Shown piece by piece: positions 11,878 through 28,507 of a stretch of DNA of 64,000 bases. The translations under genes were made by a program, and so were the position numbers. The stretch lies in NCBI RefSeq assembly GCF_044324785.1, contig NZ_CP172127.1. One strand, written 5' to 3'. The notes under the pieces are model-generated. The model was not told where the DNA came from. It did not search any database and was given only the letters and a program-made list of their open reading frames with translations. Position 1 is the first letter of the stretch. Each line of letters begins with the position of its first letter. Source of the stretch: Escherichia coli. Lineage in GTDB: Bacteria; Pseudomonadota; Gammaproteobacteria; Enterobacterales; Enterobacteriaceae.

Positions 11878-12012
11878 GATTGGTCGCTCGCGGTGCATCC
11901 GACACTGGCAGTGTTGCCTGATGCGCCGCTATTCGCGTCTTATCAGGCATATACCAGAGATAGCGAACCATAGGTCGGATAAGGCGCTCGCGCCGCATCC
12001 GACAAATGTGTT
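11878..12012. repeat. REP/BIME cluster between ruvB and znuB
   Basis: Three REP-like units (ggtcgctcgcggtgcatccgaca; gcctgatgcgccgc...gcgtcttatcaggc; ggtcggataaggcgctcgcgccgcatccgaca). Confidence 0.7.
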
Positions 12013-17084: not shown

Positions 17085-17128
17085 TGAACTGTAGGCCGGA
17101 TGAGGCGTTTTCGCCGCATCCGGCAACG
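17085..17128. repeat. REP element
   Basis: gtaggccggatgaggcgttttcgccgcatccggca matches REP consensus. Confidence 0.7.
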
Positions 17129-25474: not shown

Positions 25475-25765
25475 ATGGCGGTTGAAGTTAAATACGTAGT
25501 CATTCGTGAGGGCGAAGAGAAAATGTCGTTTACCAGCAAAAAGGAAGCCGATGCTTATGACAAAATGCTTGATACGGCGGATCTGCTTGACACCTGGCTG
25601 ACAAATTCTCCAGTGCAAATGGAAGACGAGCAACGTGAAGCCCTTTCGCTATGGCTGGCAGAACAAAAAGATGTGCTGAGCACCATTCTGAAAACCGGCA
25701 AATTACCGTCCCCACAGGTCGTCGGTGCTGAATCCGAAGAGGAAGATGCCTCACACGCGGCCTGA
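25475..25765 (+). CDS. yebG: DNA damage-inducible protein YebG
   Basis: 96-aa ORF preceded by LexA box. Confidence 0.9.
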   Translation: MAVEVKYVVIREGEEKMSFTSKKEADAYDKMLDTADLLDTWLTNSPVQMEDEQREALSLWLAEQKDVLSTILKTGKLPSPQVVGAESEEEDASHAA

Positions 25766-25783: not shown

Positions 25784-26188
<405 letters not shown>

Positions 26189-26514
26189 TGGCCTCTGATA
26201 ATTCGATTGACCGTCGGCGGATGCGGCGCGAGTGCCTGGTCCGCCCTACAAGGCACCTCAATCGGAGGCCTGAGAAGACGCAACAGCGTCGCATCGGGCA
26301 ATCAGCATCAAACAATGCCACTCAAAACGTCAAATTACTTTCACCTAAAATACCCTTATCACCTGATATACAGTGAACACCTTACCTGGCGCGAATTTCT
26401 TTGAATAACGGCCTGCCGACCCGCTTATTTGCGCATCTTTTGTCTCGATATACATTTTCTGACATCCTCATCCGCTATGCTACAGGCACTAAAAATGGTT
26501 ATTGAGGAGCAAAT

Positions 26515-27174
26515 ATGGCTAACTGGTTAAATCAACTGCAATCCCTGCTTGGGCAAAGCAGTTCTTCTACCTCCTCGTCTGCGGATCAGGGATTGGGCAA
26601 ACTTTTAGTGCCTGGCGCATTAGGCGGACTGGCTGGGCTGCTGGTCGCAAATAAATCAGCACGTAAACTTCTTACGAAATATGGCACCAACGCGTTGCTG
26701 GTTGGCGGCGGAGCGGTAGCGGGTACGGTGCTGTGGAATAAATACAAAGATAAAATTCGCGCGGCGCATCAGGACGAACCGCAGTTTGGCGTGCAGAGTA
26801 CGCCGCTGGATGAGCGTACGAAACGTTTGATCCTTGCGCTGGTCTTTGCCGCTAAAAGTGATGGTCATATTGATGCCAAAGAACGTGCGGCAATCGACCA
26901 GCAATTGCGTGAAGCCGGCGTGGAAGAGCAGGGGCGTGTACTCATTGAGCAGGCAATCGAACAACCGCTGGATCCACAACGCCTGGCTACCGGGGTCCGC
27001 AATGAAGAAGAGGCGTTGGAAATCTATTTCCTGAGCTGCGCGGCTATTGATATTGACCATTTTATGGAACGCAGTTACCTGAATGCACTGGGTGACGCGC
27101 TGAAAATCCCGCAGGATGTTCGTGAAGGCATTGAACGCGATCTCGAACAGCAAAAACGCACTTTGGCGGAATAA
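26515..27174 (+). CDS. yebE: Inner membrane protein YebE (DUF533)
   Basis: 219-aa ORF recognised as YebE. Confidence 0.9.
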
Positions 27175-27337: not shown

Positions 27338-28507
27338 TTAAGCCGCAACCGTCTGTGTGACGGATTTACGCTGGCCTCCATGGGCAGAAACGACGAGTCC
27401 CGCCGCTTGTAATTCCAGTATGCCCTTGCGTTTGATGTTGAGCGCCGCGTTGATATCGCGGTCATGTTCAACTCCACACTCTGGACACTGCCAGATGCGC
27501 TTATGTAATGGCATCTCCGACATTTTGTGACCGCAGCAGTGGCAGGTCTTCGAACTGGCGAACCATTGATCCAGTTTCACCAGATGCACACCTTTCTCTG
27601 TTGCTTTGTATTCCAGTTTTGTGATGAATCCAGACCATCCAGCATCGCCTATCGCACGAGCCAGATGGTGATTTTTCATCATATTTGCCGTTTTCAATGT
27701 CTCGACAATTACCGCTTGGTTTTCGTCAACAATTGCGCGAGATAACTTGTGCTGGAAATCGGCACGGGCACTAGCTACCCGTTCGTGAACGGCTGCAAGT
27801 TGTATTCTGGCTTTGCGCCTGTTTGCGCTCCCTTTTTTCTTACGGGACAGTGCTTTCTGCTTCCGGCGCAGGTTGCGACTTGCATTGATTAGGTGGCGGG
27901 GACTGGCAATTTTATTGCCGTCCGATTTGATGACAAAATGCGCCAGCCCCATATCCAGCCCTGTCACATTTGATATCAGTGCGGGCTTTGCCGGCGCTTC
28001 CATCCCGTCGTCACAGAGTAACGACGCGTAGTATTTCCCGGTTGCGCTGCGGCTCAACGTGATACTTTTCAGCATTCCCGTAATTTCACGATGTAAACGC
28101 GCTTCAATCGGCAAGATTTTCGGTATTTTTATCGCACCATCAAGGACTTTTATGCCAACACAATGATAGCTCGATTGTCTGCCGTGTTTACTTTTAAAGG
28201 TTGGTTTACCTGCTTTCAGTTTCGGATTGAAAAAGTTAGAAAAAGCCACGTCGAGGTTAATTACCGCCTGCTGCAACGCAATAGAATCATATTCTTTAAG
28301 CCATCCATACCGGCGGGATTTCTTCGCCACTGCAAGCAGTGGTTTGAGGTCTTTACGCGGGTTTAAATTTACGCGGTGCCGCTGGTAAGAATGTTTCTTG
28401 ATATGCAGAGCTTTGTTGTACGCAAAACGCACTGCACCGAACTGGGCGTTGATAAATTCAGCCTGTTCTGGTGTCGGGTAGATGCGTACTTTTGTTGCTC
28501 TTAACAT
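27338..28507 (-). CDS. tnpB: TnpB (IS605 OrfB family; RuvC-like RNA-guided endonuclease)
   Basis: 389-aa ORF; RuvC-I GLDMG, RuvC-II E in VIVETL, zinc finger CHCCGH...CPECG, RuvC-III HDRDINAALNI. Confidence 0.9.
   Translation of the reverse strand: MLRATKVRIYPTPEQAEFINAQFGAVRFAYNKALHIKKHSYQRHRVNLNPRKDLKPLLAVAKKSRRYGWLKEYDSIALQQAVINLDVAFSNFFNPKLKAGKPTFKSKHGRQSSYHCVGIKVLDGAIKIPKILPIEARLHREITGMLKSITLSRSATGKYYASLLCDDGMEAPAKPALISNVTGLDMGLAHFVIKSDGNKIASPRHLINASRNLRRKQKALSRKKKGSANRRKARIQLAAVHERVASARADFQHKLSRAIVDENQAVIVETLKTANMMKNHHLARAIGDAGWSGFITKLEYKATEKGVHLVKLDQWFASSKTCHCCGHKMSEMPLHKRIWQCPECGVEHDRDINAALNIKRKGILELQAAGLVVSAHGGQRKSVTQTVAA

Follow-up and report, generated by a model that had tools for sequence, protein, structure and literature searches.

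The spacer between yebF and yebE in Escherichia coli raises the question of what 326 bp of DNA that follow a gene with no obvious terminator could contain, and we examined it in a window of 64,000 nucleotides (NZ_CP172127.1), which is the whole stretch of DNA that was analysed. In the open reading frame list and the RefSeq annotation (strain N3, where the locus is identical, and K-12) yebF occupies 25832-26188 on the + strand, codes for 118 aa in RefSeq and ends with TAA at 26186-26188, and by the list and RefSeq yebE occupies 26515-27174 on the same strand and codes for a DUF533/TerB-family inner membrane protein of 219 aa. The spacer runs from the yebF TAA to the yebE ATG at 26515, that is from 26189 to 26514, as had been predicted. 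It was found in 5419 of 5426 complete E. coli genomes with an identity of 90-100%. The proximal part (26426-26514), with the yebE promoter and leader, is conserved across Enterobacteriaceae, whereas the distal 230 bp or so, with two REPs and a C-rich tract, is found in Escherichia only, the spacer in other genera being 85-128 bp long. The notion that the spacer is unconserved and, the yebE promoter aside, silent largely holds for the distal 230 bp outside Escherichia but not within Escherichia, where both the REP hairpins and the C-rich tract have been kept. In all likelihood two ordinary parts make up the spacer, a distal yebF 3' untranslated region (26189-26425) and a proximal yebE promoter (26426-26514). 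What had been noticed in the sequence is real and the feature is ordinary and already known, because it consists of a catalogued REP135 pair, a probable Rho C-rich stretch and a known stress-induced yebE promoter. As a finding it matters little, and the useful outcome is the dissection of a spacer that looks odd in the raw sequence.

The original prediction had described a degenerate REP-like fragment in this spacer, and the string given for it, cggcggatgcggcgcgagtgcc, is present at 26215-26236. It is not a fragment, however, but part of a complete 34-nt Y-type palindromic unit, REP1, GGCGGATGCGGCGCGAGTGCCTGGTCCGCCCTAC, on the + strand at 26216-26249 with CTAC at its 3' foot (26246-26249). REP1 aligns without gaps with canonical REPs at 1757-1790, 11970-12003 and 17091-17124 of the same 64-kb window, and its identity with these three Y REPs, counted from the alignment, is about 79-82%. 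A second, inverted unit had been overlooked, namely REP2, a Z-type palindromic unit on the - strand at 26264-26299, GCCCGATGCGACGCTGTTGCGTCTTCTCAGGCCTCC. It has 3 mismatches to a 36-nt IUPAC REP consensus pattern, where 0 chance matches are expected, and in E. coli genomes its 36-mer is found 15 to at least 66 times, with a median of at least 40. The two units lie on opposite strands, foot to foot, and the element starts 27 nt past the yebF stop codon. Between the feet is a linker of 14 nt read from the sequence, aaggcacctcaatc (26250-26263), which is variable among Escherichia and deleted in strain SCPM-O-B-8794. In this allele one foot is canonical and the other is not, as REP1 has CTAC and REP2 has CTCC, but in K-12 and most Escherichia the foot of REP2 is CTAC as well.

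In the minimum-energy fold both REPs form imperfect hairpins (34 nt for REP1 and 36 nt for REP2). When 10 Escherichia sequences were compared, the REP1 stem was 100% paired with one compensatory change from G-C to A-U, the REP2 stems were 95-98% paired with one compensatory pair from C-G to A-U, and G-U wobbles in the stems were tolerated on the yebF-sense strand only. The two REPs were also the only Rfam matches in the region: at a permissive E-value only the REP-derived naRNA4 was hit (E = 0.019 for REP2 and a weak E = 0.089 over REP1 at 26170-26246), with best scores of 28.3 and 25.3 bits, which are below the threshold of 59.5. The pair is REP135 of K-12, which is placed between the tandem genes yebF and yebE in the K-12 REP catalogue (Table S16, bioRxiv 10.64898/2026.03.23.713779). 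This two-unit REP element (BIME) is at 1929924-1930007 in K-12 and its equivalent here is 26215-26298, the K-12 coordinates being carried over through a gap-free alignment of K-12 and the window. The RefSeq annotation examined has no repeat features at all and the absence of a REP label there is therefore uninformative. Two further resemblances were dropped as post hoc, a possible third, decayed REP at the left flank (GGCTTCTGATAA, resembling GGCCTGATAAGA) and the 8-mer CGGCCTAC at the K-12 equivalent of 26408-26415.

A long-range inverted repeat, ggcctc with gaggcc, had also been pointed out, and it is real, with the right arm at 26265-26270 and not at 26266. It extends to arms of 10 nt (26190-26199 with 26261-26270) that are 90% complementary and, as RNA, 87% paired across Escherichia, and it could be thought of as a functional clamp round REP1. 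This is very improbable, as the pairing in 10 Escherichia sequences shows no excess over shuffled controls (124 of 500 shuffles equal it), the right arm is simply the conserved foot of REP2, and the perfect 6-mer match rests on two substitutions in this allele, K-12 having GGCTTC and TAGGCC. The central C-G pair is found only in this allele. The repeat is also absent from the minimum-energy fold, in which the left arm is taken up by pairing with the end of yebF. The hairpin predicted there spans the yebF stop codon (26174-26200, + strand, AUCAG.GGC with GCC.CUGAU) and is 97.8% paired in 10 Escherichia sequences, which says little because its 5' arm is coding and most of its pairs never vary.

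How yebF transcription ends is the next part of the question. It had been predicted that no U-run terminator follows yebF, and this was borne out when the + strand of 26189-26514 was scanned with a consensus, as no stem followed by a T-run was detected; the bases after the two REP hairpins are AAGG and AATC, which are not T-runs. The REP pair is followed by a C-rich, G-poor and poorly structured tract at 26300-26390 on the + strand, in the untranslated RNA of yebF, which from its composition and from published in-vitro Rho binding is a probable Rho loading (rut) region. C makes up 29% and G 10% of 26300-26399, and in the best 78-nt stretch, 26309-26386, the C/G ratio is 4.8, which is higher than in every 78-nt stretch sampled on both strands of the 64 kb. 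This skew is kept in 10 of 10 Escherichia sequences (2.8-6.25) even where the sequence has indels. The segment 26296-26425 is not a repeat, as it is single-copy in E. coli. In vitro, Rho has been reported to bind K-12 1929797-1929982, corresponding to 26240-26425 of the window, with and without NusG, and in Table S16 of the same work the field that reads YES in other rows, which we took as in-vivo evidence, is blank for REP135 (bioRxiv 10.64898/2026.03.23.713779). Among the rows listed in the Term-seq and bicyclomycin tables of Adams et al. there was no yebF or yebE entry, the RepRanger supplements had no yebF entry, and a literature search for yebF with Term-seq or bicyclomycin found no paper. 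REPs have been linked to Rho-dependent 3' ends and to protection from exonucleases (bioRxiv 10.64898/2026.03.23.713779; PMC6061677), and it has been reported that REP fragments of 2-4 hairpins do not suffice for Rho to terminate transcription and that what REPs do varies with their context (bioRxiv 10.64898/2026.03.23.713779). In other genera, e.g. at two Cedecea loci (L068 and L034), an intrinsic terminator is found at the same position, and this suggests that termination at this place matters.

A probable explanation is that the C-rich stretch after the REP pair lets Rho stop yebF transcription, and the Rho signal is probably located in this adjacent tract rather than in the REPs. What we infer to happen in vivo is that ribosomes leave at the yebF stop codon, whereupon Rho would load on the C-rich RNA and end transcription before or around the yebE promoter, and 3'-to-5' exonucleases would then trim the RNA back to the REP hairpins, which would define and protect the yebF 3' end. 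Such a Rho/REP module would replace the missing intrinsic terminator and would insulate yebE from yebG/yebF transcription.

The REP pair could also be a selfish or neutral remnant spread by RAYT (TnpA-REP) that has no role for yebF or yebE, in which case the C-rich tract would be incidental and yebF transcripts would read through or decay. REPs are described in the literature as mobile-element-like substrates of TnpA-REP, the element is confined to its lineage and is found in no other genus, and in E. coli the copies have diverged from the canonical Y sequence, the Y unit here having three lineage-specific substitutions compared to the canonical form that is retained in E. whittamii. At its foot REP2 has GGAG in place of GTAG in this strain, an IS1 insertion within the C-rich tract is tolerated in one strain, and the reported variability of REP effects (bioRxiv 10.64898/2026.03.23.713779) would also fit. 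Yet the stems are kept 95-100% paired with compensatory changes and strand-specific wobbles, the C/G skew is extreme in the 64 kb and kept in every Escherichia species, the interval binds Rho in vitro, and in other genera this position is occupied by an intrinsic terminator, and with these on the other side we consider a mere remnant unlikely. It is quite improbable that the pair acts mainly as DNA, by being bound or cleaved by gyrase, IHF or DNA polymerase I or by helping to organise the nucleoid. BIMEs are described as sites for several DNA-binding proteins (PMC2817692), but a linker of 14 nt leaves no room for the long one that binds IHF in BIME-1, the model REP made no long-range REP-REP contacts and had no effect on the nucleoid (bioRxiv 10.64898/2026.03.23.713779), and wobbles confined to the sense strand fit a constraint on RNA better.

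Whether the spacer encodes something of its own was a further question, as it had been supposed that it may hold an unannotated RNA element. This was not supported, as nothing in the spacer other than the already catalogued REP pair resembles a structured RNA, Rfam stayed below threshold and there is no conserved ORF. Mechanical ORFs of 33-65 codons are found on both strands, one of them starting at the yebF stop codon (TAATG), and the middle segment of the spacer is conserved within E. coli, but on either strand a frameshift or a stop codon interrupts each of these ORFs in one or more E. coli strains or sister species, and two Escherichia species have large indels in the segment. The consensus scan of the spacer detected neither a promoter-like nor a terminator-like site, and the table of Kim et al. 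gives no start in the spacer besides that of yebE, which is also its one start in the interval from ptrB to yebF. An independent small RNA or small protein is thus already largely refuted and we hold it to be extremely improbable.

That the spacer may hold the yebE promoter was confirmed. The mapped K-12 start (1927758, - strand) corresponds to A26488 on the + strand, which gives a 5' leader of 27 nt, and the promoter block is conserved across genera. Table S1 of Kim et al. 2012 gives this start with a 5' UTR of 27 nt and the upstream sequence ...CCGCTATGCTACAGGCA, which is identical in the window; the start rests on 5 reads only. Its -10 hexamer, TATGCT, is at 26476-26481 on the + strand, 6 nt upstream of the mapped start, and T1, A2 and T6 are invariant in 81 Enterobacteriaceae sequences; the ribosome-binding site of yebE is GAGGAG. 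A sigma-70 consensus scan gave no match in the spacer at the threshold used, and the -35 element of the actual promoter is weak. Because the mapped start is A26488, an alternative promoter with its start at A26464 of TGACA, TACATT as -10 and TTTGCG as -35 was rejected. Sigma-E and sigma-32 readings of the conserved block TTCCTGACA were also rejected, as judged by eye the spacings do not fit. A yebE promoter listed by genomic SELEX, TTGTCC-15-CACAAT, lies inside the K-12 REP pair, is altered here and appears to be a pattern match and not a mapped start.

The most conserved block of the spacer in the 81 Enterobacteriaceae sequences is 26428-26442, which has a direct repeat resembling a CpxR box on the - strand (TTTGC-GCATC-TTTTG on the + strand and CAAAA-GATGC-GCAAA as reverse complement) that is centred at -53. 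Compared to GTAAA-N5-GTAAA in reverse orientation it matches at 7 of 10 positions here and at 8 of 10 in many other genera. A search of the spacer for CpxR boxes with at most 2 mismatches gave no match, and it missed 26428-26442 because only 7 of 10 positions match here. yebE is listed in the CpxR regulon of RegulonDB and used as a Cpx reporter, and published work with yebE promoter reporters in E. coli, C. rodentium and E. cloacae describes a response to Cpx and to copper. From the repeat we infer that CpxR may bind at -53. A second conserved direct repeat is found in cross-genus alignments at 26450-26464 on the + strand (-38 to -24), which reads ATACA-TTTTC-TGACA here and AGACA-TTTCC-TGACA in most genera.

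In relatives where no terminator follows yebF, the ribosome-binding site of yebE is predicted to be masked by a strong helix. This helix is formed by CCCCTCGC and the first bases of the -10, which lie just upstream of the start, pairing with the ribosome-binding site over 10-18 bp. Here the pairing is weak and appears as an inverted repeat on the + strand at 26465-26508, UCCUCA (26465-26470) with UGAGGA (26503-26508, the ribosome-binding site). The fold-back duplex of the E. coli window has -13.0 kcal/mol (z = -2.0) and the whole-leader fold of the window is not better than shuffles (z = -0.1); in Citrobacter and Salmonella the helix is strong, at about -27 kcal/mol (z about -4.2). RNAalifold gave no shared structure for the yebE leader of 81 sequences, as the 3' arm is thrown out of alignment by the variable loop, and it was replaced by per-sequence duplex energies and a test of cognate against non-cognate arms. 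At 42 loci yebF directly adjoins the promoter and leaves too short a spacer for a terminator, and there the helix is strong; no terminator was found in the Citrobacter locus that was scanned. The helix is weak or absent where there is an intrinsic terminator, a divergent purT upstream or the Escherichia module of REP135 and C-rich tract. Since the 5' arm is upstream of the yebE start, the helix would form only in transcripts that read through from yebF and not in Cpx-initiated mRNA. It is possible, and we put it forward tentatively, that in many Enterobacteriaceae this predicted fold-back helix insulates yebE translation from upstream transcription, and that the Escherichia insertion may have taken over this task, after which the helix decayed in E. 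coli. The junction of a DNA-damage/secretion gene pair with an envelope-stress gene would then be handled in three ways, by an intrinsic terminator in some genera, by REPs and a C-rich tract in Escherichia and by a helix without a terminator in others. If this pattern is true, it would be a natural example of interchangeable insulation of neighbouring transcription units and a caution for users of yebE reporters that carry the whole spacer.

Translation of the IS10 transposase is reportedly subject to fold-back inhibition in transcripts that come from outside, which is said to have been described by Davis, Simons and Kleckner in 1985. There, as in the yebE loci, the ribosome-binding site can pair with sequence that lies ahead of the gene's own start, and only the longer transcripts fold. 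The difference is that yebE is a chromosomal stress gene and not a transposase gene, and that the predicted helix, which is strong in Citrobacter, Salmonella and Kosakonia, is weak in the E. coli window. With CpxR-activated promoters, in which a GTAAA-N5-GTAAA box lies upstream of a weak -35, the yebE promoter shares established membership of the Cpx group and a conserved direct repeat of pentamers with 10-bp periodicity centred at -53; the candidate box is, however, reversed here and matches at only 7 of 10 positions.

Compared to REP135 of K-12, the element here is at the same locus and of the same length and sequence family, with a Y and a Z unit in inverse orientation, in an extragenic position between tandem genes and with imperfect stems; the two differ in their feet, that of the Z unit being GGAG here and GTAG in K-12 and that of the Y unit CTAC here and CCAG in K-12. 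With the REP/BIME family at large it has in common the CTAC/GTAG foot and high copy number. Its linker is short like that of BIME-2 as opposed to BIME-1, yet the element is single-copy. The terminators in the model of Peters et al. and in Dar and Sorek 2018 (PMC6061677) likewise have a stable stem-loop without a U-run followed by enrichment of C over G, and their steady-state 3' end arises by exonuclease trimming to the stem, which for yebF we propose by analogy. A parallel in proposed role is REP325 of the yjdM-yjdN operon, a partial Rho-dependent terminator and stabiliser of upstream mRNA (bioRxiv 10.64898/2026.03.23.713779), which likewise lies between tandem genes without a U-run; by analogy REP135 would also lower read-through into the downstream gene and protect the upstream mRNA, with 2 units here compared to 12 in REP325.

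The spacer at 26189-26514, between the yebF stop codon and the yebE ATG, is a real but ordinary feature. It comprises a REP pair already in the catalogues, what is probably a Rho-dependent end of yebF, and the known Cpx-dependent promoter of yebE, and is in this sense already known. The local gene order is purT (-), yebG (+), yebF (+), yebE (+), an ISEc46-like IS200/IS605 element and ptrB. The spacer is 326 bp, as in K-12, with which it aligns without gaps; it is 100% identical to that of strain N3 (NZ_CP031609.1), and identity of at least 99% was found in only 6 of 5426 complete E. coli genomes. The IS200/IS605-family element between yebE and ptrB occupies 27338-28507 (-) and DNA beyond towards ptrB and encodes a 389-aa TnpB/InsQ-like ORF, to which the annotation of N3, identical here, adds an ISEc46-family tnpA; K-12 is without this element and its yebE-ptrB spacer is 208 bp. 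In K-12 the yebF start site lies 258 nt upstream of yebF, within the yebG coding sequence (Kim et al. 2012), at about window position 25574, and hence yebF has a long leader overlapping yebG.

The REP-like string of the original prediction is present as quoted, but it is not a fragment: it belongs to a complete 34-nt palindromic unit, REP1 (26216-26249, +; GGCGGATGCGGCGCGAGTGCCTGGTCCGCCCTAC), that aligns without gaps to three canonical REPs at 1757-1790, 11970-12003 and 17091-17124, all on the - strand. These are three further canonical Y-type units, which served as references within the window. On the strand opposite to REP1 lies REP2 (26264-26299; GCCCGATGCGACGCTGTTGCGTCTTCTCAGGCCTCC), which differs from the 36-nt REP consensus pattern at 3 positions, whereas shuffles of the window gave zero matches, and whose 36-mer has a median count of at least 40 matches in each E. 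coli genome. The two units stand foot to foot across a 14-nt linker, and inverse REP units facing each other across a linker are the arrangement termed BIME. They are the only Rfam matches in the region, both weak and both to naRNA4, a family derived from REP325. Table S16 of bioRxiv 10.64898/2026.03.23.713779 places REP135 (K-12 1929924-1930007) among the REPs that separate tandem genes, in this case yebF and yebE; transferred through the gap-free alignment it falls at 26215-26298, in agreement with REP1 plus REP2, and the pair is thus the already catalogued REP135 of K-12. Both inspected stretches of the K-12 RefSeq annotation are without any repeat features, and so the missing REP135 there is uninformative.

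In a comparison of ten Escherichia sequences, six from E. coli strains and four from other species of the genus, pairing held in 100% of the cells of the REP1 stem and in 95% and 98% of those of the two REP2 stems. Each unit shows one compensatory change (REP1, G-C to A-U; REP2, C-G to A-U), and several G-U wobbles would be mismatches if read on the other strand. In these ten closely related sequences the pattern points, modestly, to a constraint at the RNA level on the yebF-sense strand. A more canonical Y unit, GAGCGCCTTATCC, is kept in E. whittamii and two other species, which indicates that the E. coli copy has drifted. The long-range inverted repeat ggcctc/gaggcc exists, with its right arm at 26265-26270. 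This arm is the foot of REP2, and across Escherichia the repeat does not outdo shuffled controls. Its perfect 6-mer needs two substitutions that this allele carries, the K-12 arms being GGCTTC/TAGGCC, and in the minimum-energy fold its left arm pairs with the last yebF codons. A predicted hairpin at 26174-26200 spans the yebF stop codon, and its conservation in Escherichia is due mainly to coding bases that do not vary. An arm of the inverted repeat overlaps the 3' arm of this hairpin (26191-26200), and the two pairings are mutually exclusive.

As had been predicted, no intrinsic terminator follows yebF, a stem-plus-T-run scan of the + strand having found none. Directly after the REP pair the + strand is C-rich and G-poor (29% C and 10% G in 26300-26399), and the best 78-nt stretch, 26309-26386, has a C/G ratio of 4.8, above every sampled 78-nt stretch on both strands of the 64 kb. 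This skew is kept in 10 of 10 Escherichia versions (2.8-6.25) even with large indels in the sequence. Table S16 (bioRxiv 10.64898/2026.03.23.713779) also gives a region bound by Rho in vitro, with and without NusG, at K-12 1929797-1929982, which corresponds to window 26240-26425 and covers REP2 and the entire C-rich tract and none of the yebE promoter. In its REP135 row the field that reads YES in other rows, taken as the in-vivo mark, is blank, and no yebF/yebE entry was found among those listed in the Term-seq and bicyclomycin tables of Adams et al. In a known architecture, a stretch enriched in C over G comes after a stem-loop that lacks a U-run; termination by Rho takes place further downstream, and the RNA is then shortened by exonucleases as far as the hairpin, which protects it (PMC6061677). 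REP325 is both a partial Rho-dependent terminator and a stabiliser of upstream mRNA (bioRxiv 10.64898/2026.03.23.713779). Taken with this architecture, the REP pair, the C-rich tract and the in-vitro Rho region make a Rho-dependent end for yebF probable, and 26189-26425 would be the 3' untranslated region of yebF, with an end protected by the REP pair.

The suggestion that the spacer holds the yebE promoter was borne out, as the start mapped in K-12 corresponds to A26488 and 81 sequences share a conserved proximal block. The start, which gives a 27-nt leader, was mapped by Kim et al. (2012), who list none besides it between ptrB and yebF, and their 51-nt sequence ending ...CCGCTATGCTACAGGCA places it at A26488 with TATGCT as the -10 hexamer. 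In the 81 aligned sequences the motifs are a CpxR-box-like ATTT[G/T]CGCATCTTT[T/A]G (26426-26442), the direct repeat [C/T]AGACAyTTyCTGACA (26449-26464), a C-rich run after 26464, the -10 hexamer TAnnCT (26476-26481; T, A and final T invariant) and a purine-rich ribosome-binding site at about 26504-26509, GAGGAG in the window. On the other strand the first motif reads CAAAA-GATGC-GCAAA, or CTAAA-GATGC-GCAAA in many genera, and matches GTAAA-N5-GTAAA at 7-8 of 10 positions, centred at -53; a search for GTAAA-N5-GTAAA allowing 2 mismatches missed it. From this likeness we infer a putative CpxR site. In E. coli, C. rodentium and E. cloacae, yebE is well established as a gene of the Cpx regulon and as a reporter for it. 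The GACAT-N5-GACAT repeat (26450-26464, ATACA-TTTTC-TGACA in the window; -38 to -24) is nearly invariant in the 81 Enterobacteriaceae sequences; no regulator was matched to it, and it was rejected as a sigma-70 -35 element on its spacing. In exponential phase the yebE mRNA of E. cloacae depends on Cpx; in stationary phase its level is higher and independent of Cpx, suggesting a further input, for example RpoS. In the window the sequence around the -10 hexamer, GCTATGCT, resembles the extended sigma-S -10 motif.

When one genome per species with YebE was scanned (80 loci), the spacer downstream of yebF was 85-128 bp in all genera but Escherichia (279-327 bp), Siccibacter (415 bp) and, within Cedecea, Cedecea colo (264 bp). 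The ~95 bp of the window next to yebE are the part to which the short spacers align, and the REP pair and C-rich tract had no counterpart outside Escherichia in the scanned loci. In E. coli the middle segment is present as a single copy, and no ORF in it survived sequence comparison. In the clinical E. coli strain Eco_70239 an IS1A is inserted in this C-rich segment at about window 26340, tolerated in this one strain, with the yebE-proximal 174 bp intact. Cedecea (L068) and another enterobacterial locus (L034) have an intrinsic terminator in the corresponding position, and none was found in Citrobacter. In Salmonella enterica subsp. diarizonae (L019:2409-2423) a weak terminator-like hairpin, 6 pairs followed by TCTTTTG, overlaps the CpxR-box-like block; it may be there by chance or may weakly attenuate read-through from yebF. 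The Enterobacter cloacae complex, Lelliottia, Kluyvera, Yokenella, Trabulsiella and Pluralibacter have neither yebG nor yebF, and in them yebE and purT are divergent; Buttiauxella is without yebF and mostly retains yebG, followed by a hairpin judged terminator-like by appearance (together L041, L042, L048, L049, L054, L055, L066, L071, L076, L078-L080, L082 and L083). Klebsiella has no yebF ortholog in the table of Kim et al.

The C-rich run, with the first bases of the -10 hexamer, is complementary to the yebE ribosome-binding site and forms the 5' arm of a predicted fold-back helix. The start site is downstream of this arm, so that the helix would be restricted to transcripts reading in from yebF; in RNA from the position equivalent to the mapped start the ribosome-binding site is free in the predicted fold. 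In Citrobacter and Salmonella the whole leader region is predicted to fold as one hairpin (about -27 kcal/mol, z about -4.2), including G-U pairs workable on the sense strand only. Cognate arms pair at -13.2 against -10.6 kcal/mol for non-cognate arms, with 0 of 10,000 permutations as good, a figure inflated by sequence relatedness. The helix is strong where a short spacer joins yebF to the promoter (median duplex energy -21.9 kcal/mol in 42 loci with a spacer of at most 105 bp, which leaves no room for a terminator) and weak with a terminator or insertion between yebF and yebE (-8.2 kcal/mol, 14 loci) or with no yebF upstream, that is, divergent purT or yebG and then a terminator-like hairpin (-8.7 kcal/mol, 25 loci). 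It reaches -20 to -27 kcal/mol in Citrobacter, Salmonella, Kosakonia, Phytobacter and Pseudescherichia (L006-L045, for example L008:2450-2516, L019:2450-2516 and L044:2447-2513). Escherichia is intermediate among these contexts, and in the window the helix (26465-26508) is weak: its duplex energy is -13.0 (z = -2.0), and the fold of the whole leader has z = -0.1.

Fold-back inhibition shields the IS10 transposase from outside transcription, and the pattern of the yebE helix is similar. It is possible, though rather doubtful with few independent transitions, that in Escherichia the REP plus C-rich module has taken over the putative insulating role of the helix. In having a hairpin without a U-run and then a C-over-G stretch, the Escherichia spacer is like the published stem-loop/Rho architecture of 3' ends.
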